NCBI GenBank assembly: GCA_965238125.1
Contig: OZ250179.1
Span: forward strand, 4,774,723-4,838,722
DNA: 64,000 nt
Direction of reading: 5' to 3'
Origin: Bryobacterales bacterium
Lineage (GTDB): Bacteria; Acidobacteriota; Terriglobia; Bryobacterales; UBA6623
Below, piece after piece: positions 636 through 55,423 of this stretch. Position 1 is the stretch's first letter. The number at the start of each line of letters is the position of its first letter. Below the pieces are notes generated by a model, which was given only the letters and a program-made list of their open reading frames with translations, was not told the origin of the DNA and did not search any database. Made by a program: the position numbers and the translations under genes.

Positions 636-700
636 AGTAGTCGATGGACGTCGGTCGGAGCAAGCCCCGTGGTACGCTGCGATGCGGAGGAACCGTACTC

Positions 701-3361: not shown

Positions 3362-3559
3362 CTAGCCCGCATTTCTCACCGCCTGACGAGCAAAGCACAC
3401 GATAGGCCCGCCATTACTTCGTTGCGCTTGCTCGCCGCGCTCACCGTACTGTTCAAGTACGCCTCTTTGCTTAAGAAATGGGCGCCAAGCGGCGCGCGCC
3501 TCGTACTGACGGACCTTTCATGCACTTTGCCTCGCCACGCGGTGAGAAAAGCGGGCTAG
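3362..3559. mobile_element. MITE-like non-coding element, copy 1
   Basis: 21-bp TIRs CTAGCCCGC(A/T)TTTCTCACCGC; near-identical copy at 10145-10329. Confidence 0.75.
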
Positions 3560-8660: not shown

Positions 8661-8776
8661 GGCCGCCGGGGGTAGATGCCCGCGGTGGGCAGGCGTCCGG
8701 GCCGTATTGCCTGCACGGTAGACAGGCGCGGACGGCACGAGAAGAGAACAAATCGACTGGCCGGGGCCCGGTTCGA

Positions 8777-10144: not shown

Positions 10145-10329
10145 CTAGCCCGCATTTCTCACCGCCTGACGAGCAAAGCACACGATAGGCCCGCCATTAC
10201 TTCGTTGCGCTTGCTCGCCGTGCTCACCGTACTGTTGAAGTACGCCTCCGCGCGCCAAGCGGCGCGCGCCTCGTACTGACGGACCTTTCATGCACTTTGC
10301 CTCGCCACGCGGTGAGAAAAGCGGGCTAG
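10145..10329. mobile_element. MITE-like element, copy 2
   Basis: Same TIRs and body as 3362-3559; 13 nt shorter internally; lies between murQ and murA. Confidence 0.75.
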
Positions 10330-12121: not shown

Positions 12122-12746
12122 GAAATACGGCAGCCGGAGCCGTCATCTGATTCCGATCTAGCGAGGCTATAGCTCGCGCAAAGAAAAGTGGAAGGCAAAA
12201 TGGCCTTCCTTTGGCTTTGTCGGGTGCCTCACCGTCATCGCCAGGTTTGGGCGGTTGAAGCTGATGCTGCCCTTTCCGCTCGCGGGATGATTGCTGACTC
12301 GTTTCCCGGAGACCTCGAGGCGTATGCTTCCATCCTCCGACAACCGCACCAAGGCACTGGCGCCGTCAGCCCGGGTCAGCAAACGAGGTGCCTCCCGATC
12401 GCCGTAGTACTGCCGGGGAAGTGTGAACAGGCGTCTACCCTCTGAGCTGACCTCAAAGGTCCACCGAGTTGTTCCGCCCGATCCGTCCTCGAATACTTCG
12501 ATCTTGTCCAGGCTCAGCACCGCCCTTCTCGTCGGCACCGTGGGATCGACGGTGACCGAGCAGGACGCATGCGCAACTCCTCCCGGTCCGGCCGCCTTGA
12601 GTTTGTAGACTTGGCTCTCGGACGGGCTCACGGTTACCGACCCTTGGGCGCCGAACAGGCGGGAGGGCCCCGGCGAGATTGCGACGGACGTACCATGTGC
12701 GACGTCCCATTTCAAAGTCGTGCGCTGTCCCTCTTGAATTCTATTA

Positions 12747-13839
12747 CTGAGTCTCGCATAATATACTGTCAATCGAGACAAAGAGAAGACTGTTTCCAGA
12801 AAGCGGTAATCAAGCGCGGTTTGCGGCGCATTCGCCGCAGCGCTTTGCGGGCGCGCTCGTCGAGTTCCCAGTAGTCCTTCGGGCAGACGTTGGGCAACTC
12901 GTGCTGCTTCCAGTACGCCCAAATGTATTCCACCGGGTTCAACTCCGGCGCATAGGGCGGCAAGTACTCCGTTGCGATGTGATCCTCGGAGAGCTGGATG
13001 AACTCCCGCACCAGGCGGCTGCGGTGCGCCGGCAGCCGGTCCCAGACGATCAGCAGTGGGCCGTCGATGTGGCGCACCAAAGCCTTCAGGAAGTCGATGA
13101 CCTCCAGCTCGCCGATCGCGCCGGGATAGAGCCGGAAGTAAAAGTTGCGCAACGTCAGCCCGGCCGACACCGACAGCTTGTCCCAGTTGAAGTTGAACTC
13201 CAACACCGGTGTCTCGCCGCGCGGCGCCCAGGTGCGGCAACGATGCGGCTTCTGACTCAATCCGCTTTCGTCGATGAAGACGATCGTACGTTCTTCTTTG
13301 CGGGCTTTTTTTTAATGGCCGGCCAAGTCTTGCGCTGCCAGCCGCGGATGGCCTCTTCGTTGCGCTCCCGCGCTTTGCCGACGGGCCGTTGCGGGCTCCA
13401 ACCGAGCGCCCGCAGGATCTTCCAGACATGGCCCTCGTGATAGCGCACGCCGAACTCGTCTCCGATCAGACGAGCGACCCGCGGACAGCTCCACAGCGGC
13501 GTCGGGAAGCCGTGCGCCTCGGGGCCTTCCAGCAGCAACGCCTCGAGGCGTTCGAGCTGCGCGGCGTCCAACAGCGGCTTACGGCCGGCGCGGCCGGCCT
13601 GGCGCAACCCGGCTTCGCCGTCACGCCGGTATCGTCGCAGCCACTCGCTGACGCTTTGCCGCGCGACCTTCAATCGCCTCGCTGTCTCGGACTGACTACA
13701 GCCTTGCTCGACCAACCGGATCGCTTTGAAACGGCGCTTCTCCAGGGCCTCGAAATCCCGCCGTACGCCTTTTGTATTTCCCATACATACAAAGACGTAC
13801 GTACCCCAAAAAGGTGTCACTTGATTTTGCGAGACTCCA
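12747..13839 (-). mobile_element. IS630-family element, copy 1 (1093 bp)
   Basis: Ends CTGAGTCTCGCATAATA / TTTTGCGAGACTC(C/A)A; TA duplicated at 12745-46 and 13840-41. Confidence 0.96.
12769..13820 (-). CDS. IS630 transposase; HTH ORF and DDE ORF joined by predicted -1 frameshift
   Basis: A8 slippery run; fusion reads IKKKARKEERTIVFIDESG...LIVWD...YAPELNPVE. Confidence 0.92.
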
Positions 13840-15067
13840 TAGGTCCGGCCTCGAAACTAATCACACTGGGCGCCGGTTCCGGCGGGGGCGGCGGCGCGGT
13901 TGATTGCTCAATGTTGACAGTCGTCGAGGCTTTTCGTGTGCCCCCGGGGCCTTTCGCTTCCAGTACATAAGTAGTAGTGCGCCTCGGGGAGACAGATGCC
14001 GAGCCCTTCGTAGCCCGATCACCCACCCTGGGCGAGATCTGAACGCCGTCGGCATGAAGTACGTCCCAATGCAAGTTTGCCGAGCGACCCTCCGCGATCG
14101 AAGTAGGGTCAGCGTCAAAACGAACGATAGCGAGGGGCTTCTCGACAGGGTCGGCCGGCGGCGACGCGTCAGGGTTAGGCGGCGGCACTTCAGGTCCACG
14201 GGGGTTGGTTACGTTCAGAACCGCGGATGCTTCTGTTGAGGCGCCCCTGCGGCGCGCAACAAGGGTGTAGACCGTTGTAGTATCCGGGTTGACGGGGAAG
14301 CTGCCCGACAAACTAACGCCCTCAACCCCGGCAATGCCCGTGATCGTTGCGCGATCGGCGTTTTCGATTTGCCAATTGAGCTCGGAGGACTCGCCACGTA
14401 CGATTTCGGCCGGCTTGGCGATGAAGCTCTTGATCATCGGTGGCTTAACCGGCGAAAGCCAGTAGTTGTTGATGAGCCCAAAGATACCGGCAATAATCCC
14501 ACCGGCGATGGCCACTTGAACCGGCACCGCAATTTTTTCTCGCATGTCTGATTCCTCGCCGACAGTTATCTTCTTCTTGCCGTTGCTGTCCGACCGGTCG
14601 TCGCAATAGGTGGGCGGTATACCGAGTGAATCACCCGGCCATTATTTCCTATTCGGGTTTCAAAAACAACAATTCGGGAATTCGCCGACCCGAAGATTCT
14701 TAGCTGGGCGGGCAGTCTCGCCCTATGTGCGAGCGAGAGGCTCCCTCCCCATCCCACCACCATGCGGTGTGCGAAAACACCCGGAACAAAGGTGCCGGCC
14801 GGCGACGAGCGTCGCCTTGAGACGGGCAAAATAGATACGGTCTCGGTATCGATAGGGAAGATCTTGGCCGGCGTCTCTGGGGAGAGCCGGGCAGAGGGGA
14901 AGCAGCACCCGAATAACTGATCGCAAGAACTCGCGCACGATCCTGTTCATACAGACATCGCTCCGCGGTCCACCGCGATGGCGAAGTCGACATCAACCAA
15001 CGTTATCGCGATTGCGTCAAAATCAAGAAAAGGGATTGCTCTCACGAATGCCCCAAACCGTCTCCCG

Positions 15068-24676: not shown

Positions 24677-26286
24677 GAGGAGGATGCCCCACTACTGAGT
24701 CTCGCATAATATACTGTCAATCGAGACAAAGAGAAGACTGTTTCCAGAAAGCGGTAATCAAGCGCGGTTTGCGGCGCATTCGCCGCAGCGCTTTGCGGGC
24801 GCGCTCGTCGAGTTCCCAGTAGTCCTTCGGGCAGACGTTGGGCAACTCGTGCTGCTTCCAGTACGCCCAAATGTATTCCACCGGGTTCAACTCCGGCGCA
24901 TAGGGCGGCAAGTACTCCGTTGCGATGTGATCCTCGGAGAGCTGGATGAACTCCCGCACCAGGCGGCTGCGGTGCGCCGGCAGCCGGTCCCAGACGATCA
25001 GCAGTGGGCCGTCGATGTGGCGCACCAAAGCCTTCAGGAAGTCGATGACCTCCAGCTCGCCGATCGCGCCGGGATAGAGCCGGAAGTAAAAGTTGCGCAA
25101 CGTCAGCCCGGCCGACACCGACAGCTTGTCCCAGTTGAAGTTGAACTCCAACACCGGTGTCTCGCCGCGCGGCGCCCAGGTGCGGCAACGATGCGGCTTC
25201 TGACTCAATCCGCTTTCGTCGATGAAGACGATCGTGCGGTCTTGTTTGCGGGCTTTTTTTTAATGGCCGGCCAAGTCTTGCGCTGCCAGCCGCAGATGGC
25301 CTCTTCGTTGCGCTCCCGCGCTTTGCCGACGGGCCGTTGCGGGCTCCAACCGAGCGCCCGCAGGATCTTCCAGACATGGCCCTCGTGATAGCGCACGCCG
25401 AACTCGTCTCCGATCAGACGAGCGACCCGCGGACAGCTCCACAGCGGCGTCGGGAAGCCGTGCGCCTCGGGGCCTTCCAGCAGCAACGCCTCGAGGCGTT
25501 CGAGCTGCGCGGCGTCCAACAGCGGCTTACGGCCGGCGCGGCCGGCCTGGCGCAACCCGGCTTCGCCGTCACGCCGGTATCGTCGCAGCCACTCGCTGAC
25601 GCTTTGCCGCGCGACCTTCAATCGCCTCGCTGTCTCGGACTGACTACAGCCTTGCTCGACCAACCGGATCGCTTTGAAACGGCGCTTCTCCAGGGCCTCG
25701 AAATCCCGCCGTACGCCTTTTATATTTCCCATACATACAAAGACGTACGTACCCCAAAAAAATGTCACTTTATTTTGCGAGACTCAATAAGATCCGTAGG
25801 CGACTTGCCCCGGATCTTGTTCCAGTTGGCATCCGCCTTGCGGATGTTTCCGGGAATGTCTTCGAGCCATTTCTTTTGAATCTCCTCATTTAGATTGAGG
25901 TAAAGCTTGCCATTGACCACCTTGAACAGGTGGGGGGCACCGTCAAACTTGGCGCCTGCCGACACCCCGTAGGCGCAGAAACCGCCGTATTGGGGAACGT
26001 ATCTGTCGGGGTTTCGCTCGAACTTCTTCTTGTTCGCTTCGCTCGAGAAGCGATAGGCCGCGCCATTGTGCGTGGCGGCGAACTCGGCCTTTCCCACCAC
26101 GGCTCGTCCTTTGGTGAAGTACGCCACCGGGTCGTAGCCGTGGTTGGCCAGGGGAGCGCTGGCGAGGGTCATTCCCGTGCTCGTGTTGACGTCCACAACG
26201 GCGTTGCCGGGGACCGTTAGCGCGAGACCCAGCGTGACCACGGCTACAGTCGTGATCAGCTTGCGAAAATGGATTCGAATGTTCAT
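24673..26286 (-). CDS. YHS-domain secreted protein; last 7 codons displaced by IS630 copy 2
   Basis: GYDPVAYF, YVPQYGGFCAYG, KLYLN; IS removal gives ...PTDLSGASSS* (172 aa); the truncated product may still work. Confidence 0.85.
24695..25787 (-). mobile_element. IS630-family element, copy 2 (most diverged copy)
   Basis: TA at 24693-94 and 25788-89; several substitutions relative to the other copies. Confidence 0.96.
24717..25768 (-). CDS. IS630 transposase (predicted -1 frameshift)
   Basis: Same organisation as copy 1. Confidence 0.9.
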
Positions 26287-27222: not shown

Positions 27223-27495
27223 GCTGTTCTGTCTCCCCTCGGTCTTCGGTTAACTCCCGCGTTCGCTGAATCATCTGACGCCGGCAGCCGGATTCTCATA
27301 AGATCTTTTCCCCGCTCCGGGCTCCAGAGGGGTCTAGCTCAGCTGCGTGTGCGTGATCTTCCGTCCGCTGCAACATGTATCCTTGGCCGACAATCGTTAG
27401 GATTCTCCCGTTCCGGCCGGCTGCGAGTTTCTTACGCAGTCGAGAGACGTGGGTGTCCAGGGTCCTGGAGCGTGCATGCTCGTTGTAGCCCCAAA

Positions 27496-29161
27496 CCCGG
27501 ATTTCCACTTTAGTTTCGGTTCTGCTAACCATCGGGTGGACTCGGACGCCTTTATTTATGCGGGCTTGAAAGCACTCAAGGCGCTGAGGAGATCAACACC
27601 CAATGGGTGAAAAAGAAAACAAACCGTTTCAGCTCACCTTCAATGGATTTCTCAAGGTCGATTTCCAAGGATCGCGAGTCACCTCGGATGGCGGGCTGAT
27701 TCTCATTCGCGAACTGGACGAACGACTCGGACTAGGCAAGCTGATAGACGAGCATCTGACGGATTCGCGGCAAGGCTCGAACAAGAAGTTCCCGTTCGTC
27801 GATCTGCTGCGACAGTCGGTCTACTCCCGCTTGGCGGGCTACGAGGATCTCAACGACGCCGTTCGTGTCTCCGCCGATCCAACCTTTCGGCTGATTGGCT
27901 CGAAGAAGAACTGGGATCGCGGCGCGGCGCTGACCTCCCGGCTGCAGAGCTTCGAGACCGCCATGCTCGCCGGCGACGAGAATCTGATCGGGCTGATGGC
28001 GGTGAACCGCGAGTTGATCGCGCAAGCCGAGGCCGGTGATGACTCCGCGTGCGTCGTGCTGGACATGGACTCTACCGAGAGCCCCGTCCACGGCCGGCAG
28101 GAAGGCAGCGCCTACAACGGCCACTTCGAGTCGGTCTGCTACCACCCACTGTTGCTGTTCAACCAGCACGGCGATTGCTTGGCGGCAAAGTTGCGACCGG
28201 GCAACGTGTCCAGCGCCGAGGACTGGGACGAGCTGCTGCTGCCGGAAATCGAACGCCAACAGGCGGAGGGCAAACAGGTGACGTTCCGGGCCGATGCCGC
28301 CTTCGCCAAGCCGGATATTTACGAGACGTTGGAGGAGCGCGGCGTGGACTACGTGATTCGCATCCCGGCCAACAAGAGCCTGGAGCTGGAGATCGAAGAT
28401 ATCCTGTTTCGTCCGCCGGGCAGGCCGAGCGCAAAGCCCCTGGTGCGCTACAGGAGCTTTCGGTATCAGGCCGCGAGCTGGTCGAAGTCCCGGCGGGTTG
28501 TTGCGAAGGTCGAGCATCACTAAGGTGAGTTGTTTCCTCGCGTCGGTTTCATCGTCACGAGCATGGCCTTGCCGAGCCGCTCGCTGGTGCGGTTCTACAA
28601 CAAGCGCGGCACGGCGGAGCAGTGGATCAAGGAAGGCAAACAAGCGACGCATTGGACAAGGCTGTCATGCCATCGGTTCCGGGCCAACGAAGTGCGACTG
28701 CAACTCAGCGTGCTGGCCTATAACCTGGGGAACCTATGGCGGAGGCTCGGGCTGCCGCAACGGATCAAGAGCTGGTCGCTGACGAGCTTGCAACAGCGGC
28801 TGATGAAGACGGGCGGTAGGCTGGTCAAGCATGCGCGGTACTATTGGCTGCTGTTGGCCGAAGGACATCTGAACCGGCGGCTGTTCGGCGACATGCTGCA
28901 TAGGATCTGGGCGCTGCCTGTGCCGGGTGGGTAGCGTTGCCCGGGCGAGGATCAACAGTTTTTGGCTCCAAAAAGGTTTCGCAGGGAGCAGTGTCGGCCG
29001 GAGCGCCGTTCAGTCCGCTCAATCAACGTCTGTGAGCGGACGGACGAGCCCTGGCGCCTACCGGCGGAGGTGATGTGCAGGGTTCAGCGCGAAAAGACGT
29101 GGTATTCGGCGCAGCGGGGGTGTATCCTGTGACCGTGCCAGGGCCAAAATGGAAATCCTGG
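27496..29161 (+). mobile_element. IS1380-family element (1666 bp)
   Basis: TIRs CCCGGATTTCCACTTT / CCAGGATTTCCATTTT; 5-bp duplication CCAAA at 27491-95 and 29162-66. Confidence 0.92.
27603..28934 (+). pseudogene. IS1380 transposase with in-frame TAA at 28521-28523
   Basis: VTSDGGL, LDMDST, FRADAAF, EHH*GELFPRVGF, RGTAEQWIKEGK. Confidence 0.9.
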
Positions 29162-29679: not shown

Positions 29680-31140
29680 CTACCGGCGGTACTTGGACAT
29701 GATCGCGTTGGCCCGCTGCCTTACTCTTTCGGCCTCATCCTTGCGTTCCGCCTTGCGCAGCAAGAAAGCGTATTCGCTGAGGCTGGAGGCGTACTCCGGA
29801 TGCTCGGAGCCAAGCGCTTCCTCCTGGATGTCGAGTACCCGTCGGTAGAGCGGCTCGGCCCGCGAGTAGTAGCCTTGGGCCCTGTGAAACGACGCCAAGG
29901 CCAGCAGGGCCGGTTTCAGATCCGGATGATTCGAGCCGAGATTCTTCTCATGGATCGCCAGCACCCGCGCCAACAAGGGCGCTGCCTTGGCGTATCGACC
30001 TTGCTGGATGTAGGCCTGTGCCAAGTTGTTCGCAACTGCGGCGACGTTTGGATGGTCCGGGCCCAACCCCTTTTCAAGGCCGGCCAGTGATCGGCGGAAA
30101 AGCGCCCGGGCCTTGGCGTACCGCTGCTGCTGAACGTGGAGCGCAGCCAAGTCGTTGAGGACGATACCGAGTGTGGGACTGTCGGATCCATAGACGGTTT
30201 CTCGAATCGCGATCGATCGCTGATAGGGCGGCTCTGCCTTTTCGGGATAGCCCAGGTACCGGTAGAGCCGCCCCAGCGCCTGAAGGGGATCCGCTAGGTG
30301 CGGATGCTCAGGTCCTAAAGCCTTCTCTAGAATCGCGATCGCGCGGCGATACAGCGGCTCCGCCTGAAGAAAACTGTGACGATCCACGTACAGCGCAGCG
30401 AGATGCTTTAGGACCACCGCCACTTCCGGGTGTTCCGGCCCGAAGTTCTTCTCCTTGATGGCCAGCGATCGCTTGAGAAGCTGTTCCGCTTCGGTCGACC
30501 GACCCTGGACTTTGTAGAGAGCACCCAGGTTCGTGAGGACCGTGGCCACCTCCAGACTATCCGCGCCCAGAGTTTGCTCATCGATAGCCAAGGCCCTTCG
30601 GTAGAGCTGTTCGGCTTCCTCGTAATTCCACCCGTGAGAATAGACCGATGCCAGGTTGTTTAAGACCGGCGCCAACTCCGAGTCGTGCGGCCCCACCGTC
30701 TTCTCCAAGATCGAAAGGGCCTGCTGGCCGCAACGCTCTGCCTCCGAGTATTTGCCCTGGGCGTAGTAGGTCCTCCCCAAGTTATCCAGAAGCGAGGCAA
30801 GCTTCTGGTGGTTGGGCCCCAGCGCCTGTTCCATCCGGGTCAGCGCTTGGCGATAAAGCGGCTCCGCCAGCGAGCACTTTCCTTGCAGCTGATAAGTAAC
30901 CGCCTGTTGTATTACGCTGGTTGGTTTCATGTTGCCGGCGGCGTCGGCCCTGGTGGACCCCGAGCGTGCGCCGGCAGCCGGGTCCTCAGTCCCCGCCACC
31001 GGGAACGACCCCTGGGAGCGGGCGGGTTGCTGTGATTCTTCGCGTTCCTGACCGTGCATCCCCGCGGTCGAGAAGGCCAAACAGAATGCTGCGACCAGAA
31101 GCTGGTTTGGGCCGGCAAAGCTCTTGTTCTGTTGCGTCAT
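29680..31140 (-). CDS. Secreted tandem TPR-repeat protein (kinesin-light-chain-like 42-aa repeats)
   Basis: ATG 31140 after AGGAGG; about 9 repeats like AEPLYRRALAIxEKxLGPxHP. Confidence 0.9.
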   Translation of the reverse strand: MTQQNKSFAGPNQLLVAAFCLAFSTAGMHGQEREESQQPARSQGSFPVAGTEDPAAGARSGSTRADAAGNMKPTSVIQQAVTYQLQGKCSLAEPLYRQALTRMEQALGPNHQKLASLLDNLGRTYYAQGKYSEAERCGQQALSILEKTVGPHDSELAPVLNNLASVYSHGWNYEEAEQLYRRALAIDEQTLGADSLEVATVLTNLGALYKVQGRSTEAEQLLKRSLAIKEKNFGPEHPEVAVVLKHLAALYVDRHSFLQAEPLYRRAIAILEKALGPEHPHLADPLQALGRLYRYLGYPEKAEPPYQRSIAIRETVYGSDSPTLGIVLNDLAALHVQQQRYAKARALFRRSLAGLEKGLGPDHPNVAAVANNLAQAYIQQGRYAKAAPLLARVLAIHEKNLGSNHPDLKPALLALASFHRAQGYYSRAEPLYRRVLDIQEEALGSEHPEYASSLSEYAFLLRKAERKDEAERVRQRANAIMSKYRR

Positions 31141-31715
31141 CTTGGCCTCCTGCGAAGTAGGTTTGTTTCTTGTCCCTGTCTCCTGACTCAGCATGCGCCG
31201 ACCGAGCGGGGTGAACAAGTAAGTGCACGTTATGTCACGGTAAGTTGGCATGTTGCCTTACCTTGCCGTGCGGGAATTCGGCGAGCTGAGTCACCCTGTC
31301 ACTGCATGCAGGACGCGGTGCAGGGTGCAAAAGGTCGACCCTACAATCGCAAGCCTGAATGGTTCCGACCCGGGCCTTCGAGAGCCACAGCGGCCCTTTG
31401 TGCGACATGAAAATAGTGTCCGAAAATGTCCGGGGGGTTCTGGGGGGCTGCGCGAACTCCGAGAAGATCTTAAGTTGTTATTTAACAACAGATTAGGAAC
31501 TAGAAATCTTGGCTGGAACGCAGCATGCAACAGGGGTCGGCAGTTGTGTCCGCTTTGATAGGTGGGATTCAGTCGGGGGATCTGACCATCCGGCCTTCAT
31601 GAACTACGGAATTACTCAAAAGGGGGTATCCACTTGCTGGTAGTGTCTGAAATCTGCGTTGAACCGAAAACAGCGAACGCTTGCTTTTCGGCTCACCTTG
31701 CCGTACCGTTGAAGT

Positions 31716-32003
31716 ATGGCATCAAGCCGAACTGAACTCCAAGCCCTCAAGAATCTCATCTCCGAAGTTGATCTGATCCTCGAAACAACACCCCTACCCC
31801 AGAACCGAACTGCCCGGAGCCGGGACCTGTTGAGCACGGCCTTGGCGCTCACTGACGATCTGATTGCCCAAACCAAGATGTCTCCTGCGGCTGTCCTGGG
31901 TCGCAAGGGTGGTTCCACCACCGCGAAGCGAGGTTCTGAGTACTTCCGCCAGCTTGCGGCCAAGAGGAAGACGCGGGCGGGCGGCAGGCCCAAGAAACTA
32001 TAG
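31716..32003 (+). CDS. Small basic protein with LGRKGG motif
   Basis: C-terminus AAVLGRKGGSTTAKRGSEYFRQLAAKRKTRAGGRPKK; just inside the left TIR. Confidence 0.7.
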   Translation: MASSRTELQALKNLISEVDLILETTPLPQNRTARSRDLLSTALALTDDLIAQTKMSPAAVLGRKGGSTTAKRGSEYFRQLAAKRKTRAGGRPKKL

Positions 32004-32092
32004 CCGTTTAGAATCAACCAGATAGGATCTGTTGAAAATATAGTAGGAATATTTTACTTGCGTTATTACACGATCTGCAGTAGGGTGTTGGT

Positions 32093-32695
32093 ATGCGAAG
32101 TTCAGCCGATCATATTCCCCTGCCAACGAAAGAACAGGCTGAAGCAATAGTCAATCCGATCAAGGAACCGTTGCGCCAGGCCATCAAGAACGCAATTGAT
32201 GACTGGGACTCTCTCTACGGCGGCGTCAGGCACATTCTGGGCGCGCGCTCCCAGTCCAGCATCATCCATGACCACATAGCCCATCACGCCAAGGAGCTAC
32301 TCGCCTCCACCCCTGACGTGAAGACGTTCAAACGAAAGGGCATCTTCACGATCGCGGTCGAATCAGCAGACATCCGAATCAAGAAGTTGGATGCGAAGTT
32401 GCGCTCCAACAACGTGCGGACGAACCAGCAAACCAAATACTCGTTGCAACTGAAGCTCGACGGATTCTCCGATCTGCCTCGACTAACAGCAGGCTACGTC
32501 CTCGACAACCTACGAATCGAACTTGAGAAAGCTGTCGTGACTCTCCAGGTTGGTCGGACGGTTCGATATGTCGTTCCCCTTACCGAAGAATCGGGGCAGA
32601 GCATTCTACCGTTCACAAGGCCAGTCGAGCCCCCCGCTGCACCACGGAAGCGTGTTCGGGCCAAGAGAACAAGACAAGAAGAAATCAGCGAATGA
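32093..32695 (+). CDS. Unknown 200-aa protein coupled to the XRE-ImmA/IrrE gene
   Basis: ATGA stop/start overlap at 32692-32695; TTGCGT-N17-TAGGGT promoter upstream. Confidence 0.8.
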   Translation: MRSSADHIPLPTKEQAEAIVNPIKEPLRQAIKNAIDDWDSLYGGVRHILGARSQSSIIHDHIAHHAKELLASTPDVKTFKRKGIFTIAVESADIRIKKLDAKLRSNNVRTNQQTKYSLQLKLDGFSDLPRLTAGYVLDNLRIELEKAVVTLQVGRTVRYVVPLTEESGQSILPFTRPVEPPAAPRKRVRAKRTRQEEISE

Positions 32696-33750
32696 GTCGC
32701 CCATTCAATCCCGAGATGCTGATCCTCGCACGCGAATCGCGTGGGCTAACGCAGAAAGAGTTAGCCCACGAGACGGCAATATCTCAGGGCGAGCTATCGA
32801 AGATAGAGACTGGGCTACGAGAGCCTTTTGGCGAGGTAGTTTCCAGGTTGGCTTCTCGCCTGGGATACGCAAGCGGGCTATTTTTCATCGATGATCGGAT
32901 CGTTGGCTCCAGCGGCAACTGTCCCTACTACCGAAAGAGGAAGTCTGCTTCGGTGAAGACGATTAGGCAGGCGCTCGCTGTGGCCAACATCCGTAGGATT
33001 CAGATTTCCCGCCTGCTCATTTCTGGGGTGGCGGAACTTGACACCCAGAAGCAGTTTAGGCGGATCGACATCGAAGATCACCCGGCGGGACCCGCCAATA
33101 TCGCTCGCACGGTTAGAGCGATGTGGTCGCTCCCGCCAGGGCCAATCCAAAATCTGACGCGAGCCGTCGAAGATACTGGTGGCATTGTTTTCAGATGCGA
33201 CTTCGCTTCTAAGATCGACGCTATAAGCCAGTGGCCGACCGGCCTACCTCCGATGTTTTTCATCAACCAAGATATCCCCTGTGACCGTATGCGTTGGACC
33301 CTAGCGCACGAAATCGGTCACGTAATCATGCATCAGATTCCAACTGAGGATATCGAGCAAGAAGCAAACGAATTCGCCGCCGAACTATTGATGCCTGCGA
33401 AAGAGATCGGTCCGCAGCTCACCGAACTATCACTTCCGAAGCTCGCTTCAATGAAGCCTTACTGGAAGGTGTCCATGGCCGCACTCTTGAAGCGTGCATG
33501 CGACCTGAAGACCATCACTCCCCGCCAGAGAAGCTACTTGTGGATGCAAATGGGGGCGCACGGATATCGGAAGCACGAGCCGGTTCCACTTCCCCAGGAA
33601 GATCCAACCTTGGTCCGGGAGATCGTCGATCTACACACCTCACAGTTGGGATTCTCGATCTCCGAACTTTCAGACATGATGCTGATGAAGCCTCCCGAAG
33701 TCCGACAGGAATTCACGCTCCCAAAGACCGGACCTCGGCGCGTTGCTTGA
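32692..33750 (+). CDS. XRE helix-turn-helix fused to ImmA/IrrE Zn metallopeptidase
   Basis: ARESRGLTQKELA...LSKIETG; RWTLAHEIGHVIMH (HExxH); EQEANEFAAELLMP. Confidence 0.93.
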   Translation: MSRPFNPEMLILARESRGLTQKELAHETAISQGELSKIETGLREPFGEVVSRLASRLGYASGLFFIDDRIVGSSGNCPYYRKRKSASVKTIRQALAVANIRRIQISRLLISGVAELDTQKQFRRIDIEDHPAGPANIARTVRAMWSLPPGPIQNLTRAVEDTGGIVFRCDFASKIDAISQWPTGLPPMFFINQDIPCDRMRWTLAHEIGHVIMHQIPTEDIEQEANEFAAELLMPAKEIGPQLTELSLPKLASMKPYWKVSMAALLKRACDLKTITPRQRSYLWMQMGAHGYRKHEPVPLPQEDPTLVREIVDLHTSQLGFSISELSDMMLMKPPEVRQEFTLPKTGPRRVA

Positions 33751-33763
33751 TCCCCTTTTCCTC

Positions 33764-33793
33764 TTGACAAATAGCGAGCGTTCGCTGTATAAT
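33764..33793 (+). promoter_or_regulatory. Consensus sigma70 promoter of the IS1-family transposase with a palindrome in the spacer
   Basis: TTGACA-N18-TATAAT; spacer contains AGCGA-GCGT-TCGCT; ATG 6 nt after the -10. Confidence 0.75.
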
Positions 33794-33799
33794 TGAATC

Positions 33800-34774
33800 A
33801 TGAGAACGTCGATAAAGACAAAGTCTACAATGAGTTGCCAGGAATGTGGCGGCAAGTGTCAACGCTTCGGGAAGCATCGGAATGGACTTCGCCGTTTTCG
33901 TTGCCCGAAGTGCCGCAAGACCTACACCGAACCGCATAAGCGCACTTTGGGCACGATGTACGTTCCTCAGGACAAGGCTTTGTTGGCTGTGCAACTACTG
34001 TTGGAAGGCAACAGCATTCGGAGCACTGAGCGCATCACTGGTCTAGACCGAAACACCATCATGAAGGTCTTGGTACTCGCTGGCGAGAAGTGCAACAAGG
34101 TCATGGGACGGCTGATCGTGAATGTGCCGGTCAAGGATGTTCAGTGCGATGAAATCTGGGGCTACATCTTCAAGAAGGAAGGCCACAAGACCCCCGAGGA
34201 AGTCGCCACTGACGCCACGATCGGAGACGCTTACGCGTTCGTTGCGATCGAGCGGAACACGAAGCTGATTCTCAACTTTGCGCTGGGCCGTCGGGATCAG
34301 GCAACGACGGACGCCTTTATTGAAGGCTTGCGGCTTGCCACTGCACCCCGGCAGTTCCAGATCTCTACCGATGGCTTCCGGCCGTACATCACGGCGATTG
34401 AGGATGCTCTTGAAGACCGCGTTGACTACGGCATGCTGGTTAAGCAATACAGCGAGGCTCCGACCGATGAGAAGCGCTATAGCCCGGCCCAATGTACCGG
34501 CTGCAAGCGGAAAAAGATGATCGGCAACCCGGATCGAGAGCGCATCAGCACGTCCCACGTCGAACGCCAGAATCTCACAATGCGGATGCAGATTCGACGC
34601 CTAACGCGGCTCACGAACGCTTTCAGCAAGAAGTGGGAGAACCATTGGGCGGCGCTCGCCCTGCATTTCGGATACTACAATTTCTGTCGGATTCACTCAT
34701 CGATCCGAGTCACCCCGGCCATGGAAGCGGGGATCTCGGATCACGTGTGGGACTTGGGAGAGCTGCTGTCGTAA
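33800..34774 (+). CDS. IS1-family DDE transposase, single ORF with N-terminal Zn ribbon; intact
   Basis: CQEC...CPKC, VQCDEIWGY, STDGFRPY, STSHVERQN, RRLTRLTNAFSKK. Confidence 0.92.
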   Translation: MRTSIKTKSTMSCQECGGKCQRFGKHRNGLRRFRCPKCRKTYTEPHKRTLGTMYVPQDKALLAVQLLLEGNSIRSTERITGLDRNTIMKVLVLAGEKCNKVMGRLIVNVPVKDVQCDEIWGYIFKKEGHKTPEEVATDATIGDAYAFVAIERNTKLILNFALGRRDQATTDAFIEGLRLATAPRQFQISTDGFRPYITAIEDALEDRVDYGMLVKQYSEAPTDEKRYSPAQCTGCKRKKMIGNPDRERISTSHVERQNLTMRMQIRRLTRLTNAFSKKWENHWAALALHFGYYNFCRIHSSIRVTPAMEAGISDHVWDLGELLS

Positions 34775-34839
34775 AGTTCAACGCAGATTTCAGACAGCAC
34801 CCACTTGCTTGGACCAGCCACAAGATGTAGAATTCCGGG

Positions 34840-35583
34840 ATGGTGGAGGAGTCCGGGCCGCATCCTATTGGCGGCGTTGACTATCCCAGAACCCTGCCGG
34901 AGCTCGACGATTGGTTCTCGTAGGAAGCGACGTGTCTGGCGTTTCTGCAACGGGTTCGGTGGCGGGAGAGCTTCCGATGCCCGCAATGTGCCGGCAGCGA
35001 GGCCTGGCTGACCAATACTGGCCACCTGAAGTGTAGAAAGTGTCGGCGTCGAACCTCTCTGACGGCGGGGACGATTTTTGAACGGACGCGAAAGCCCCTG
35101 CGAGTGTGGTTTCAGGCGATGTGGTACCTGACCAGCCAGAAATCCGGAGGGAGTGCGTTGGGGCTTCAGCGGGTGCTCGGCCTGGGCAGCTACCAGACAG
35201 CTTGGAGTTGGCTCCACAAGCTGCGGCGTGCGATGGTCCGGCCTGACCGGGATCGGCTCAACGGCTGTGTGGAGGTGGATGACACCTACGTCGGTGGCGA
35301 GGAAGAAGGCGTGCGCGGCCGACAAACCGAAGAGAAGGCGATCGTTGTCGTCGCGGCCGAGCAGGACGGGCGGGGGATCGGCCGAATCCGGCTCCGACGG
35401 GTACCCGACGTCTCTAGCGAGAGTCTGCACGGCTTCATCGAAGAAGCGGTCACCCCTCTGGGTCGGTGGTTCACACGGACGGATGGAAGGGCTATCACAA
35501 CATCGCCAAGAAGGGCTCCACTCACAAGGTCACGGTGATCCGCCAAAGCGACGACCCGGCGCACAAACTGATGCCCCGTGTGA
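34840..35583 (+). pseudogene. IS1595-family transposase remnant
   Basis: YPRTLPE, CPQC..CRKC, VEVDDTYVGG, VHTDGWKGY; TAG at 34921, frameshift near 35457, 3' truncated. Confidence 0.88.
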
Positions 35584-35797
35584 TACCCGGGGTCCCCACC
35601 GCGGGAGCGCCTTGTGGTTCGCCAAGACTACGCAGCCGCTTAGATTGAAGTGCTTGCGTCGAATCTCAACTGACAGTCAGGACCGCGGTTCGCACAGCCT
35701 GGTAGCAGTGATTCAGCTGATTCCCTCACTCGTTCGACTGCTCCAACGCTCGACGAATCGTCTGACGCACACCTTCCAAGGCGTCTTGCTGCCCGGC

Positions 35798-36228
35798 GAC
35801 GCTTATGACGCGGGCGGCAACCTGACGAACGATCCGCATGTCGGCAAGATGGCCTACGACGGTGAGAACCATCAGACGAGCTTCGATGCCACCGGCGACG
35901 GCGCTCCCGAAGCGACTTATGAATACGACGGCCACGGAAACCGTGTGAAGAAGATCGAGGGCGCCGCGACCACGGTCTTCGTCTACGACGCCTTCGGGAA
36001 CCTGGCCGCCGAATACGCAACCGCGCCCGACGCCAATCTTTCGGCGAGACGTTCTACCGAACCCTCGATCATCTAGGCTCGACGCGCCTGGTGACCGATG
36101 AGGTCGGAGCGGTCGTCACCCGGCACGATTTCTTCCCCTTCGGCGAAGAAATCCCGGCCAGCGCAACCTTCGGAAACCGCCAACTCCAGGTCGACGGCGG
36201 CTCGTCCACAACCTACAACCAACCCCTA
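35798..36228 (+). pseudogene. RHS/YD-repeat protein internal fragment
   Basis: YDAGGN, YDGENH, YDGHGNRVKK, YDAFGNL; after a frameshift near 36040, TLDHLGSTRLVTD...HDFFPFGEE; core and toxin absent. Confidence 0.85.
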
Positions 36229-37321
36229 TTGAGTCTCGCAAAACAAAGTGACACTTTTTTGGGGTACGTACGTCTTTGTATGTATGGGAAATACAAAAGG
36301 CGTACGGCGGGATTTCGAGGCCCTGGAGAAGCGCCGTTTCAAAGCGATCCGGTTGGTCGAGCAAGGCTGTAGTCAGTCCGAGACAGCGAGGCGATTGAAG
36401 GTCGCGCGGCAAAGCGTCAGCGAGTGGCTGCGACGATACCGGCGTGACGGCGAAGCCGGGTTGCGCCAGGCCGGCCGCGCCGGCCGTAAGCCGCTGTTGG
36501 ACGCCGCGCAGCTCGAACGCCTCGAGGCGTTGCTGCTGGAAGGCCCCGAGGCGCACGGCTTCCCGACGCCGCTGTGGAGCTGTCCGCGGGTCGCTCGTCT
36601 GATCGGAGACGAGTTCGGCGTGCGCTATCACGAGGGCCATGTCTGGAAGATCCTGCGGGCGCTCGGTTGGAGCCCGCAACGGCCCGTCGGCAAAGCGCGG
36701 GAGCGCAACGAAGAGGCCATCCGCGGCTGGCAGCGCAAGACTTGGCCGGCCATTAAAAAAAAGCCCGCAAAGAAGAACGTACGATCGTCTTCATCGACGA
36801 AAGCGGATTGAGTCAGAAGCCGCATCGTTGCCGCACCTGGGCGCCGCGCGGCGAGACACCGGTGTTGGAGTTCAACTTCAACTGGGACAAGCTGTCGGTG
36901 TCGGCCGGGCTGACGTTGCGCAACTTTTACTTCCGGCTCTATCCCGGCGCGATCGGCGAGCTGGAGGTCATCGACTTCCTGAAGGCTTTGGTGCGCCACA
37001 TCGACGGCCCACTGCTGATCGTCTGGGACCGGCTGCCGGCGCACCGCAGCCGCCTGGTGCGGGAGTTCATCCAGCTCTCCGAGGATCACATCGCAACGGA
37101 GTACTTGCCGCCCTATGCGCCGGAGTTGAACCCGGTGGAATACATTTGGGCGTACTGGAAGCAGCACGAGTTGCCCAACGTCTGCCCGAAGGACTACTGG
37201 GAACTCGACGAGCGCGCCCGCAAAGCGCTGCGGCGAATGCGCCGCAAACCGCGCTTGATTACCGCTTTCTGGAAACAGTCTTCTCTTTGTCTCGATTGAC
37301 AGTATATTATGCGAGATTCAG
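36229..37321 (+). mobile_element. IS630-family element, copy 3 (the only + strand copy)
   Basis: TA at 36227-28 and 37322-23; one substitution in the right TIR (GAGATTCAG). Confidence 0.96.
36248..37299 (+). CDS. IS630 transposase (predicted -1 frameshift at A8, 36755-36762)
   Basis: Same organisation as copy 1. Confidence 0.92.
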
Positions 37322-38362
37322 TAGGTGAAAGATATGCCAAACAAGAAAAATCCTCGCCACATTCTCCCAACGCTGATCTGCCTGGTGTTGGTCCTTGGAC
37401 TGACCACGACCGGCTGCAGCAGAATATTTGATGCACTTTTCTTTGACTTTAAAGACCGGGCGGATCGAGAGCAGGATAGACTCTGTACGGCGGGAACCTC
37501 CATTACGTGCACAGACACCACAGGCGAGAACATCGAAAAGCTGCCGGTGCCTGGGGGAGTCGAGCACGCCACTCTGCTTCCCACAGTAGCCGGGGGAGAC
37601 AACTCTTCGTCGCGGTTGGGATTGACCGCGGCTGGCGCCAAAACTGCCCCCAAAGGCGCCGCCCAAGTTGCCGCGGAGGAACCGCGCCTGATCTTCGTTG
37701 CCAACACGACAGCTCAAATTCTGAATCTAGGCACGAACACCCTAGGGGCCCAGGCGCAACTCACCGGCCGGATCCAGCTTGGAATTCCCGTCGCCGTCTC
37801 GGGAGACGCCGCTTTCGCGGCCGCAATGGTGAGGCGGGCTGCCGGAGGCACTGGCGGAGTAGACCACTCAGTAGATCTCATTGACTTGAGCAGCATGACC
37901 CGCACCGGCACCATCGAACTCCCAGCGGGATGCGATGCACGCGGGATGGCCTTCATTCCAGGAACGAGCGAATTCGCCGTGACCTGCACGGATGACGACG
38001 CCATTCGCTTCTATTCTCTCAACGGCGGCGCCGGAAGCGAGCAAATTCGGGAGATCACCGGCTGCGAAGGCGCTCGCGCGGTCGTATTTACAGCCGACGG
38101 GCAGCGCGGCCTGTTCTCCTGCACCGGCAGCGTTTGGGTGTACGACGTTCTCTCGGACTCCGTGGTACACACCATCGAAGGGTTTGATTTTGTGCGAGCG
38201 ATGGCGACGGCGATGGCTGCCACCCGAGCCTATTTCGTCAACGTGAGGGACAATGTCGCCGAACTGATTGTCGTCGACCTGGCAACATACGACATCGTCC
38301 GGACGACCGAATTGGGCGCCAGCCGCTTCCCCGGCACTGTCGTCGTCGGGCCTGATGATCTA

Positions 38363-39455
38363 CTGAGTCTCGCATAATATACTGTCAATCGAGACAAAGA
38401 GAAGACTGTTTCCAGAAAGCGGTAATCAAGCGCGGTTTGCGGCGCATTCGCCGCAGCGCTTTGCGGGCGCGCTCGTCGAGTTCCCAGTAGTCCTTCGGGC
38501 AGACGTTGGGCAACTCGTGCTGCTTCCAGTACGCCCAAATGTATTCCACCGGGTTCAACTCCGGCGCATAGGGCGGCAAGTACTCCGTTGCGATGTGATC
38601 CTCGGAGAGCTGGATGAACTCCCGCACCAGGCGGCTGCGGTGCGCCGGCAGCCGGTCCCAGACGATCAGCAGTGGGCCGTCGATGTGGCGCACCAAAGCC
38701 TTCAGGAAGTCGATGACCTCCAGCTCGCCGATCGCGCCGGGATAGAGCCGGAAGTAAAAGTTGCGCAACGTCAGCCCGGCCGACACCGACAGCTTGTCCC
38801 AGTTGAAGTTGAACTCCAACACCGGTGTCTCGCCGCGCGGCGCCCAGGTGCGGCAACGATGCGGCTTCTGACTCAATCCGCTTTCGTCGATGAAGACGAT
38901 CGTACGTTCTTCTTTGCGGGCTTTTTTTTAATGGCCGGCCAAGTCTTGCGCTGCCAGCCGCGGATGGCCTCTTCGTTGCGCTCCCGCGCTTTGCCGACGG
39001 GCCGTTGCGGGCTCCAACCGAGCGCCCGCAGGATCTTCCAGACATGGCCCTCGTGATAGCGCACGCCGAACTCGTCTCCGATCAGACGAGCGACCCGCGG
39101 ACAGCTCCACAGCGGCGTCGGGAAGCCGTGCGCCTCGGGGCCTTCCAGCAGCAACGCCTCGAGGCGTTCGAGCTGCGCGGCGTCCAACAGCGGCTTACGG
39201 CCGGCGCGGCCGGCCTGGCGCAACCCGGCTTCGCCGTCACGCCGGTATCGTCGCAGCCACTCGCTGACGCTTTGCCGCGCGACCTTCAATCGCCTCGCTG
39301 TCTCGGACTGACTACAGCCTTGCTCGACCAACCGGATCGCTTTGAAACGGCGCTTCTCCAGGGCCTCGAAATCCCGCCGTACGCCTTTTGTATTTCCCAT
39401 ACATACAAAGACGTACGTACCCCAAAAAAGTGTCACTTTGTTTTGCGAGACTCAA
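38363..39455 (-). mobile_element. IS630-family element, copy 4
   Basis: TA at 38361-62 and 39456-57. Confidence 0.96.
38385..39436 (-). CDS. IS630 transposase (predicted -1 frameshift)
   Basis: Same organisation as copy 1. Confidence 0.92.
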
Positions 39456-39833
39456 TAAGAGTCTATGTGCTCGCGGTAGAACGCGAAGGGCAAGGGCCCG
39501 GGTTGGTTGTCACCCACAAGCAGGGAGTCGAACTGGATTTTGTGCCGTCCCCCGGTTTCCCGAGCACTTTCTTCATCGTCCGACTCCCCGTCTCGACTTA
39601 GTCGCTCTCCGGGTCCCGCCCGCCAGAGGCCGCTATTAATGACGTGGCAGCGCGCCCCTACAAGAGTGATCCTCGTGCGTTAGAGTGTGCATACGATGTT
39701 AGTTAGCCTTCATGGCCTTATCTGCGGGGCGTCGTAGTTTTCGGTCGAGGAAGTCCTGGTTTTGACACGGGGCGCGCCGGCCCTCGGGCTTCCGTTGCTC
39801 CGGCCGGTGCAATCTTGTACACGGAGGTATACC

Positions 39834-52399: not shown

Positions 52400-52474
52400 C
52401 GGGCAGGGAATTCCGGGCGGCAGGTCAAACCGCCCTGAGTCCTGGTAGCGAGACGAAGATTTCCTCTAGTCTTA

Positions 52475-53567
52475 CTGAGTCTCGCATAATATACTGTCAA
52501 TCGAGACAAAGAGAAGACTGTTTCCAGAAAGCGGTAATCAAGCGCGGTTTGCGGCGCATTCGCCGCAGCGCTTTGCGGGCGCGCTCGTCGAGTTCCCAGT
52601 AGTCCTTCGGGCAGACGTTGGGCAACTCGTGCTGCTTCCAGTACGCCCAAATGTATTCCACCGGGTTCAACTCCGGCGCATAGGGCGGCAAGTACTCCGT
52701 TGCGATGTGATCCTCGGAGAGCTGGATGAACTCCCGCACCAGGCGGCTGCGGTGCGCCGGCAGCCGGTCCCAGACGATCAGCAGTGGGCCGTCGATGTGG
52801 CGCACCAAAGCCTTCAGGAAGTCGATGACCTCCAGCTCGCCGATCGCGCCGGGATAGAGCCGGAAGTAAAAGTTGCGCAACGTCAGCCCGGCCGACACCG
52901 ACAGCTTGTCCCAGTTGAAGTTGAACTCCAACACCGGTGTCTCGCCGCGCGGCGCCCAGGTGCGGCAACGATGCGGCTTCTGACTCAATCCGCTTTCGTC
53001 GATGAAGACGATCGTACGTTCTTCTTTGCGGGCTTTTTTTTAATGGCCGGCCAAGTCTTGCGCTGCCAGCCGCGGATGGCCTCTTCGTTGCGCTCCCGCG
53101 CTTTGCCGACGGGCCGTTGCGGGCTCCAACCGAGCGCCCGCAGGATCTTCCAGACATGGCCCTCGTGATAGCGCACGCCGAACTCGTCTCCGATCAGACG
53201 AGCGACCCGCGGACAGCTCCACAGCGGCGTCGGGAAGCCGTGCGCCTCGGGGCCTTCCAGCAGCAACGCCTCGAGGCGTTCGAGCTGCGCGGCGTCCAAC
53301 AGCGGCTTACGGCCGGCGCGGCCGGCCTGGCGCAACCCGGCTTCGCCGTCACGCCGGTATCGTCGCAGCCACTCGCTGACGCTTTGCCGCGCGACCTTCA
53401 ATCGCCTCGCTGTCTCGGACTGACTACAGCCTTGCTCGACCAACCGGATCGCTTTGAAACGGCGCTTCTCCAGGGCCTCGAAATCCCGCCGTACGCCTTT
53501 TGTATTTCCCATACATACAAAGACGTACGTACCCCAAAAAGATGTCACTTTATTTTGCGAGACTCAA
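52475..53567 (-). mobile_element. IS630-family element, copy 5
   Basis: TA at 52473-74 and 53568-69. Confidence 0.96.
52497..53548 (-). CDS. IS630 transposase (predicted -1 frameshift)
   Basis: Same organisation as copy 1. Confidence 0.92.
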
Positions 53568-54148
53568 TAGGACGCCTTCCTCCGCCCCATCCGGCCAGGG
53601 AACCGATTTGACGCGAAGGGGTATGACGGCGGGGTCTATAGAGTTTTGCAGGACGTCTTCAAGCAGCGTCTCCAACTTGCCGCAAGCCGGAATAGGCACG
53701 ACATGGTCGGCTCTCGGCGGGTCCTCGTCCGTCTCTGCGATTCCAAGGACCAAATGTCCTCCGTGACTGTTCGCCAAGCAAACAACTTGTCTCACTAGCT
53801 CACGCTTGGCGTGTTCGGACAGGTGCGGATTCGTTGCTGACCAAGGCTCACCTTTCTTGTGCGGAAGGGGTCCCTTTAACTCGACCGTCTCACTCTCTGG
53901 GACTCCAAGCCTGCAGAACTCGTCAACGTCTGGGGCTGTGAGCGTTTCAAGCTGTTTCGTCAGGAGTCCAGCCATTTCTTAACCTCGCGAACCACCCTAC
54001 CGCCATTATCGCAACCCCCTTAATGCCAACCCCGAGGGACTCGCGCGCTGCGGTATGGTTTCAGGCATGAAACGGGTTTACGCCCTCGCGCTCGTTGCGG
54101 CATTCGCGGCTTCACTCGGGGCGCAGCAACCCACGGCCGAAGAACTTA

Positions 54149-55241: not shown

Positions 55242-55423
55242 TAGGAGCCGGGCCGAGCAGGGCTACGCTCTCCCATCGAGATGGGGCCCCAGTTCCAACG
55301 GTCCTTCCGATTTCGTGCCCGCGTGGATTACTGCGACGCTGGTTTCGCATGAACAATCCGGCACCTGAGCGTGCTCGCCACCCCCCGACGGCCCCAGAAA
55401 CCGCGCCGACGCAACGGCCCGGG

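Follow-up and report, generated by a model that had tools for sequence, protein, structure and literature searches.

What kind of element occupies positions 31639-34801 of the DNA presented here, what does it carry, and how might its movement be controlled? The stretch analysed, referred to below as the window, comprises 64,000 nt from a Bryobacterales bacterium (assembly GCA_965238125.1, contig OZ250179.1), and all positions are given in window numbering. The element is complete, spans 3163 bp and contains four intact open reading frames (ORFs) on the same strand: orf1, orf2, orf3 and the transposase gene tnp. It is flanked by the gene for a TPR protein (29680-31251, minus strand) and by an IS1595-family transposase pseudogene. 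We consider it probable that this block is a complete IS1-family transporter insertion sequence (tIS), residing in a Bryobacterales/Terriglobia (Acidobacteriota) genome, with a RosmerTA-type toxin-antitoxin (TA) pair, orf2-orf3, as its cargo and a predicted repressor encoded by orf1.

The ends of the element are well defined. A repeat finder reports two terminal arms of 26 nt, the left (IRL) and right (IRR) inverted repeats, which begin with GGT, are complementary at 24 of 26 positions (92%) and form the top inverted repeat of the region; the 64 kb contain exactly two occurrences of the 20-nt repeat core GTCTGAAATCTGCGTTGAAC, where chance would give 0.01. The 8 bp next to the repeats are duplicated exactly, and with the end of the right repeat placed at 34800 the duplication can equally well be read as 9 bp, CCACTTGCT. 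The stop codon of the transposase gene (34772-34774) is separated from the right repeat by 1 nt, and the G+C content of the element (0.547) lies below that of the 5-kb flanks (0.596 and 0.614) and of the whole window (0.613). The first-pass annotation, which was made from the sequence alone, had described all of this, namely 26-bp terminal repeats matching at 24 of 26 positions, an exact 8-bp target duplication, an intact single-ORF Zn-ribbon DDE transposase ending 1 nt from the right repeat and AT-richer DNA, and its description stands. A composite transposon was considered as the identity of the block and rejected.

That these ends delimit a unit which moves together with its cargo is evident from copies elsewhere. 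An ENA metagenome contig (L001) carries, at 5547-8709, a copy with no differences over the 3163 bp, between flanks different from those in the window (Peptidase_M23 on one side, DndB/AAA_23 on the other). Another copy (L171, ENA ERZ25074053; 767-2907) is 99% identical to window 31639-33784 and stops in the middle of the tnp operator described below, so that the transposase gene is missing; its 6.8-kb contig has a RepA_C gene and, after the truncated copy, iteron-like repeats (GGGTCCCGAATGGACG), and the carrier is plasmid-like. From these copies it follows that the unit has moved very recently together with its cargo and has visited a plasmid. The movement of passengers expected of a tIS is thus documented twice over, by the identical unit, cargo included, between other flanks and by the occurrence of the same cargo as a free-standing module (see below), and the earlier proposal of a complete, mobile IS1-family transporter is borne out. 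Sister elements are mobile as well: one of them is present three times in a single genome (L013, L014 and L054), and the three target duplications differ. The element was not found among PLSDB plasmids, and a search for empty sites, as suggested in the first-pass annotation, was unsuccessful, the reconstructed target site matching nothing in the fetched loci. In the Bryobacterales metagenome-assembled genome (MAG) CBDDCH01, sister tIS copies (L016, L017 and L020) have swapped flanks, in that the left flank of one copy and the right flank of another form a target duplication; this pattern indicates a likely inversion or recombination between copies. As a general possibility, for which nothing further speaks, the block could consist of chromosomal genes that lie by chance beside an IS1 copy with a fortuitous second repeat. 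The identical unit with the same ends elsewhere, the exact duplication at both sides of it and the recurrence of the repeat-orf1-slot-tnp-repeat layout with target duplications in many genomes make such an arrangement vanishingly improbable.

The transposase is a member of the IS1 family. Its Zn-ribbon contains CxxC motifs at residues 13-16 and 35-38, a weak Pfam match to HTH_28 follows at residues 63-90, and D117, D191 and E255 are the candidate DDE residues. The Pfam model DDE_Tnp_IS1 is matched with 26.3 bits, above its cut-off of 24.1, and the NCBIfam IS1/IS1595 Zn domain reaches 22.4 bits, under a cut-off of 28. There are more than 8000 database relatives, and those that are named are called 'IS1 family transposase'; the name is given by NCBI to homologues at 44-70% identity and is also borne by genes 40-44% identical on annotated plasmids. 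An exact-sequence look-up of the transposase returned no match, because gene callers picked a later start codon. Classical IS1 encodes InsA and a frameshifted InsAB', both expressed from a promoter in the left repeat, and the family also includes single-ORF members. The InsA/InsAB' organisation with its programmed -1 frameshift is not found here; rather, the transposase is one uninterrupted ORF of 324 aa, and the element therefore lies outside the classical subgroup. Its membership in the IS1 family, which shows in the DDE transposase, the Zn-ribbon followed by a helix-turn-helix (HTH) and the terminal repeats with an 8-9-bp duplication, is unaffected. In these features, in GGT repeats of ~26 bp and in passengers carried inside, the element resembles single-ORF IS1 elements and the tIS, a concept of Siguier, Gagnevin & Chandler (2009) as it is cited in PMC3129680 and PMC9330008. 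In contrast to both, the present clade possesses an additional gene (orf1), keeps its cargo in a fixed slot and has for tnp a consensus promoter of its own that includes a palindromic operator.

Where the backbone ends and the cargo begins becomes clear from a comparison of relatives. The genome sample consists of 80 loci fetched via the transposase, 74 of them distinct and nearly all from Acidobacteriota MAGs, chiefly Bryobacterales and Terriglobia; the metagenome sample consists of 80 loci fetched via orf1 from Joint Genome Institute (JGI) metagenomes, out of at least 337 orf1-bearing stretches. Of the 74 distinct genome loci, 23 have a same-strand orf1 homologue at a distance of 0.8-2.7 kb upstream of tnp. 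In the metagenomes the transposase gene follows orf1 after 0.6-1.7 kb in 44 of 80 loci, most of the others ending too early to judge, and in neither sample does an orf1 homologue ever stand directly beside tnp. DNA homology between the backbones of the window element and of its sisters L010, L011 and L013 is limited to two arms, ending at ~31997 (the end of orf1) and resuming at 33756-33770 (the tnp -35). The layout of the clade is therefore IRL-orf1-(slot)-promoter-tnp-IRR, and the two homology breakpoints, the orf1 stop codon and the tnp -35 hexamer, are the boundaries of the slot, between which the backbone would tolerate foreign DNA. Repeats of the IRL type also bound L010, L011, L013, L015, L018 and L044; a number of relatives are complete, with GGTAGTGTC-type repeats at their ends and duplications of 8 bp, and the vehicles as a whole are IS1 derivatives of 2.2-4.2 kb with a slot for a single module.

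This layout changes the status of orf1. The first-pass annotation had counted three intact passenger genes: the genes are indeed intact, yet only orf2 and orf3 are cargo, and orf1 was rejected as a cargo gene in favour of a conserved backbone gene of an Acidobacteriota IS1 clade. Its product has at least 750 homologues, many of them on short multi-copy contigs, and combines three predicted helices (AlphaFold2 mean predicted local distance difference test score, pLDDT, 72) with a basic C-terminus that ends in GGRPKK, and has neither Cys nor His. No Pfam, NCBIfam or PADLOC model matches orf1, a profile search of PDB sequences gave no usable match and a fold comparison with the PDB no significant one, and a plasmid search did not find orf1 on plasmids.

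Inside the slot, orf2 and orf3 form a tight module, with the orf2 stop codon lying within the ATGA that starts orf3 (4-bp overlap). Orf3 unites an HTH of the XRE type with an M78 (ImmA/IrrE) Zn-peptidase (Pfam HTH_3, 9e-11; Peptidase_M78, 1e-14), the HExxH motif being HEIGH at residue 206. This is the domain combination by which the RmrA antitoxin of RosmerTA is recognised, and orf3 matches 14 PADLOC RmrA models, the top one at E = 1.3e-55 over residues 4-340, that is, at full length. The earlier placement of the XRE-ImmA/IrrE gene in a TA- or defence-type module thus finds support. At every orf2 locus examined, an HTH-M78 protein is encoded immediately downstream by an overlapping or directly adjoining gene, even in the case of relatives at 44% and ~28% identity. 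This partner measures 351-361 aa where it is complete; it is frameshifted in L006 and L170, and a contig end cuts it in L003, L007 and L008. Orf2 itself has 17 close homologues, and a profile search of 1.84 billion representatives retrieves 1527 clusters at E<=1e-3 and 634 at E<=1e-10. Its dN/dS (the ratio of non-synonymous to synonymous substitution rates) is 0.15, pointing to purifying selection, and no membrane segment is predicted. Neither orf2 nor any of 75 relatives matches a Pfam or NCBIfam model; phrog_15813, a family whose function is not known, matches 59 of these 75, and orf2 was not found in GenBank phages.

The module is autonomous. Outside the element, orf2-HTH-M78 loci are situated in prophage-like or integrative regions with no IS1 backbone, and one free-standing module (L170) is 80% identical to 32007-33750, which corresponds to the content of the slot including the region upstream of orf2. 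In six loci the orf2 homologues are preceded by a common promoter motif, a block running from GGAATATTT to CTTG that is invariant but for two central positions. The L170 match and the conserved upstream motif together mean that the module arrived with its own promoter. The candidate -10, TAGGGT, ends 6 nt before the orf2 ATG in both the window and L170, which suggests that the orf2 transcript may be leaderless or near-leaderless; in more distant orf2 homologues the distance from the hexamer to the start codon is ~15-20 nt greater. A related arrangement occurs in L172 (JGI 3300062862, 305-3056), where an IS1595-family transposase gene stands directly upstream of an orf2-like/RmrA-like pair. A second IS family may thus carry the same module; no flanking inverted repeat that would mark this IS1595 element as a further tIS was found.

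RosmerTA systems consist of a Zn-peptidase antitoxin and diverse, heterogeneous toxins of unknown function, and the systems tested protect against phages (Millman et al. 2022, bioRxiv 10.1101/2022.05.11.491447; Ernits et al. 2023, PMC10440598). The pair in the slot resembles them in the antitoxin, which joins an N-terminal HTH to a Zn-peptidase of the ImmA type, in the small adjoining partner and in a tight operon carried on mobile elements or prophages; RmrT-D5 of Gordonia phage Kita differs from orf2 in having a predicted membrane segment. On these grounds we file orf2-orf3 as RosmerTA-like, with a putative toxin whose family is without annotation. Translation of orf2 as effector or toxin would be coupled to that of orf3 as RmrA-type antitoxin or repressor, RmrA would keep the toxin silent or neutralised, and the toxin would be set free upon infection by a phage or when the element is lost. 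The host would thereby gain an abortive-infection defence and the element an addiction function, with the toxicity of Orf2 and the anti-phage activity of the pair both being predictions from sequence.

Alternatively, orf2-orf3 could be a pure addiction module, acting by post-segregational killing for the tIS and its carrier plasmids and having no part in phage defence. The TA-like architecture with its overlapping genes and RmrA-type antitoxin would suit this equally, as would the element copy on the RepA_C plasmid-like contig and the classical TA pairs (MqsA-like, Panacea) of sister elements. We nevertheless hold it unlikely that addiction is the whole story: tested RosmerTA systems do protect against phages, relatives of the pair sit in prophage-like regions beside integrases and terminases, and a PHROG family matches the relatives of orf2. 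Addiction and defence can, moreover, coexist.

The second half of the argument concerns the control of transposition. The transposase gene has a remarkable promoter, identical to the consensus at all 12 positions, and the spacer of this promoter harbours a palindromic candidate operator. A related site lies between IRL and orf1, where it is found at the same position in ~25 sister elements; the repeat finder pairs 31670-31688 with 33770-33788 at 89% complementarity. Across elements the arms of the operator vary symmetrically (ACAGCGAGCGTTCGCTGT, ACAGCAAGCGCTTGCTGT, ACAACGAACGCTCGTTGT and ACACGAAGCGCTTCGTGT), the pattern expected where a dimeric protein binds. Upstream of tnp, 19 of 23 distinct transposase relatives with orf1 have the motif ACA-N12-TGTA, as against 2 of 51 without orf1 (Fisher p = 7.5e-12), and the four orf1-bearing exceptions include near-misses such as the window element itself (ATA for ACA). 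Furthermore, the type of operator tracks the backbone and not the cargo, since L010 (cargo: a winged HTH protein), L013 (MqsA-like) and the window element (RmrTA) share one type. We infer that Orf1 is an operator-binding repressor of the orf1 and tnp promoters. An Orf1 dimer would bind both palindromic sites and would repress its own gene together with the otherwise very strong tnp promoter, thus keeping transposition low.

Such a role would be analogous to that of InsA, a Zn-finger/HTH protein of IS1 which recognises the terminal repeats and has the same N-terminus as the transposase. Both are small left-end proteins with repression of transposase expression, proposed here for Orf1, as their presumed task, but the proteins are unrelated: Orf1 lacks Cys and His as well as any HTH match in Pfam, NCBIfam or its structural model, is encoded by a separate gene, and would bind palindromes that differ from the repeats. 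Orf1 is hence not a member of the InsA family, though by analogy it may be InsA-like in function.

Two other assignments of the regulator have to be weighed against this. Orf1 might be a cofactor of transposition, for example an AT-hook-like DNA bender for the transpososome, while the Zn-ribbon/HTH of the transposase binds the palindromes and provides autoregulation. The basic GGRP(K/R)K tail of Orf1, which comes without a classical HTH, and the fact that the transposase has DNA-binding domains of its own are compatible with such a division of labour. Against it, transposase relatives without orf1 have neither the palindrome nor the separate promoter, and the palindrome is unlike the terminal repeats that a transposase must recognise; a cofactor in place of a repressor is improbable in our view. 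The other assignment gives orf3 the part of a stress switch of the element, which represses the tnp promoter and cleaves itself after DNA damage, thereby inducing transposition, with orf2 as an accessory or sensor protein instead of a toxin. M78 peptidases with HTH partners are known as anti-repressor switches, 13 bp separate the end of orf3 from the tnp -35 downstream, and the commonest slot genes encode HTH proteins, a hint that a DNA binder in the slot may matter to the element. As in ImmR/ImmA of ICEBs1 and IrrE/DdrO, an M78 metallopeptidase is here tied functionally to an XRE-type HTH. In those systems, however, protease and repressor are separate and control element induction or the DNA-damage response, whereas orf3 unites both domains in a single protein, and its gene forms a TA-like pair with the conserved gene upstream. 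With this fusion, and with a tnp operator independent of the cargo, the pair does not qualify as an ImmR/ImmA-type switch. The tnp operator remains the same where the cargo is unrelated or devoid of HTH proteins (L010, L013, L025 and L036), the orf2-orf3 unit occurs far from any IS1 element, and the conserved promoter motif that it brings along does not resemble the tnp operator. A stress switch is thus very unlikely, and slot-encoded HTH proteins in general were rejected as binders of the tnp operator, because the operator follows the backbone and not the cargo.

It is only fair to set out what speaks against a RosmerTA-bearing IS1 transporter under the control of Orf1. With regard to the vehicle, the transposase scores 81 bits (E = 1e-22) against NCBIfam transpos_IS1 and stays below the curated cut-off of 100. 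The identical copy in L001 has no target duplication, its left flank reading CTTGGGCG and its right flank CAATGCTG, and the absence points to recombination of one copy with another or to a join made in assembly; this right flank is loosely similar to that of the element in the window (CCCA..TGCT..GACCAG). As to the cargo, orf2 and its 75 relatives match no PADLOC model, including in the case of orf2 the RmrT models of version 2, a point that also sets the pair apart from known RosmerTA. The AlphaFold2 model of orf2, two helices followed by a β-sheet, has a modest pLDDT of 65 and no significant fold neighbour in the PDB, and a PDB profile search gave nothing usable. Orf3, in turn, also matches the NCBIfam spr1629 repressor/antitoxin model (2.6e-30), below its cut-off. 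As to the regulator, Orf1 has no recognisable DNA-binding fold and no relative of known structure, its association with the operator could stem from shared clade ancestry instead of function, and the operator in the window has a mismatch in one arm, ATAGCG against ACAGCG in the closest relative, L010. This single mismatch might weaken repression; the ATA at 33771-33773 is also present in the L001 and L171 copies. Finally, the most common content of the slot, in 31 of 73 elements, is an HTH protein of unknown role and not a TA pair.

This last point calls for a closer look at the slot, the content of which was surveyed in 73 elements. The proteins that prevail, of 160-330 aa, have variable N-termini and C-terminal HTHs. 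Other slots hold coiled-coil plus winged-helix proteins (7 of 73), an MqsA-like Zn-ribbon/HTH gene (5 of 73, in four of them preceded by a clustered DUF4258-like gene), DUF1828 pairs (3 of 73), a SocA/Panacea pair (2 of 73), an ABC-type AAA_21/AAA_15 ATPase of 511-533 aa (2 of 73) or an SDH-type protease (1 of 73). In L011/L012 the slot contains a second RmrA-like gene (2 of 73) together with a 221-aa partner that is unrelated to orf2 and shows no similarity to it. The listing of cargo variants by genome search that had been advised earlier has thus yielded DUF4258/MqsA-like, Panacea and ABC-type ATPase modules in the same position. Given that HTH proteins are its commonest content, the slot is not dedicated to defence genes; it accommodates cargo in general, and TA/defence-type and regulatory modules are abundant in it. 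At the right end of the slot of L010, ~75-115 nt upstream of the tnp start (6001), there is a stretch resembling the 3' end of a tRNA, GGTTCGAATCC...CCA. A tRNA gene is ruled out, as ARAGORN finds none, and the stretch may be a remnant attachment site that was captured with cargo.

TA modules are carried by Tn3-family transposons, too, and variable cargo rich in defence and TA systems is a feature that the present elements share with Tn7-like transposons, on which defence cargo is known (Benler et al. 2021, PMC8649781). Tn7-like and Tn3-family elements are large, multi-gene transposons with other machinery, in contrast to a 2.2-4.2-kb IS1 derivative with a slot for one module. A bolder reading, possible but rather doubtful, is that IRL-orf1-slot-operator-tnp-IRR constitutes a dedicated cargo shuttle of an Acidobacteriota IS1 lineage, ~1.4 kb in size, which swaps single TA, defence or regulator modules, and that Orf2 is the founder of a family of RmrA-controlled effectors with at least 1500 clusters. 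If so, it would represent a minimal, cassette-like defence vehicle, with integrons or the variable region of Tn7-like elements as its functional counterparts.

How much of this is new? Transporter IS elements, RosmerTA and defence cargo on Tn7-like transposons are already known, and the view of the first-pass annotation that this is the best candidate for an undescribed system has not been upheld as far as the kind of system is concerned: the pair fits the published RosmerTA architecture, and what is unannotated is the family of the toxin partner, for which Pfam, NCBIfam and PADLOC have no model and of which no description was found in the searchable literature. The more unusual part is the backbone with its fixed slot, accessory gene and shared operator, which is not visible from a single copy. 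Literature searches (IS1 tIS, ISMhu11, IS1 in Acidobacteria) found no description of such an IS1 clade; an earlier listing in ISfinder or TnCentral is possible. The element is real and recently active, and its main value lies in the backbone architecture and in the unannotated partner family. If our interpretation is correct, TA/anti-phage modules travel even on the smallest transposons, 2-4-kb IS1 derivatives, in soil Acidobacteriota, a phylum with little-studied mobile elements, and two operators, a small protein and a very strong promoter make up a compact natural system in which a dedicated accessory protein controls the transposase. The orf2 family, consistently paired with RmrA-type antitoxins, provides a concrete target for defence-system annotation, and the precise boundaries of the slot raise the question of how cargo modules are exchanged, which comparative data can answer.

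Table. Features of the element, sister elements, and IS630-family copies in the window.
Feature	Position or size	Strand	Remarks
Left target duplication	31631..31638		CACTTGCT, read directly; same letters at 34802-34809
IRL	31639..31664	+	GGTAGTGTCTGAAATCTGCGTTGAAC; repeat finder
Left operator-like site	31670..31685	+	ACAGCGAACGCTTGCT; between IRL and orf1, related to tnp palindrome
orf1	31716..32003	+	95 aa; conserved backbone accessory gene, predicted regulator
Cargo slot	32004..33755	+	two-gene module with own promoter region
Promoter motif of module	32046..32061	+	GGAATATTTTACTTGC; upstream of orf2 homologues in six loci
Candidate -35 of module	32058-32063		putative hexamer assignment
Candidate -10 of module	32081-32086		putative hexamer assignment
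orf2	32093..32695	+	200 aa; putative toxin/effector in RmrT position
orf3	32692..33750	+	352 aa; RmrA-like, XRE HTH + M78 (ImmA/IrrE) Zn-peptidase
tnp promoter	33764..33793	+	TTGACA-18-TATAAT, 12/12 vs consensus; kept in sister elements
Palindromic operator (candidate)	33771..33788	+	ATAGCGAGCGTTCGCTGT, 18 bp; inside tnp promoter spacer
Transposase gene (tnp)	33800..34774	+	single ORF, 324 aa; N-terminal Zn-ribbon + HTH, DDE, IS1 family
IRR	34776..34801	-	repeat finder
Right target duplication	34802..34809		CACTTGCT, read directly
Sister element L010	2163 bp		perfect 26-bp repeats
Sister element L011/L012	3280 bp
Sister element L013/L014/L054	2458 bp		three copies, one genome, three different duplications
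Sister element L015	2541 bp
Sister element L016-L020	2571 bp
Sister element L044	2172 bp
IS630-family copy	12744-13843
IS630-family copy	24692-25792
IS630-family copy	36225-37324	-
IS630-family copy	38349-39461
IS630-family copy	52471-53576
IS630-family copy	54145-55249

The neighbourhood of the element contains decayed mobile DNA. Directly to its right, the IS1595-family pseudogene (~34880-35650), which matches Zn_ribbon_IS1595 and DDE_Tnp_IS1595, is damaged by an in-frame TAG near 34920 and a frameshift near 35470. The tIS had been described as the only undamaged accessory block of the region, a statement that has to be withdrawn in view of six IS630-family copies of ~1.1 kb in the window, which are at least 99% identical to one another. 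In each of them an ORF of 187 aa overlaps one of 163 aa, suggesting that the transposase is frameshifted, and the IS630-family element looks like one that is actively expanding in this genome. A 604-bp stretch, a fragment of an IS1380-family element, is repeated at 100% identity (27495-28098 and 63397-64000), and its first copy overlaps an ORF that matches an IS1380-family transposase (NCBIfam, 233 bits). A direct repeat of ~200 bp with 92% identity is found at 3362-3559 and 10145-10329.

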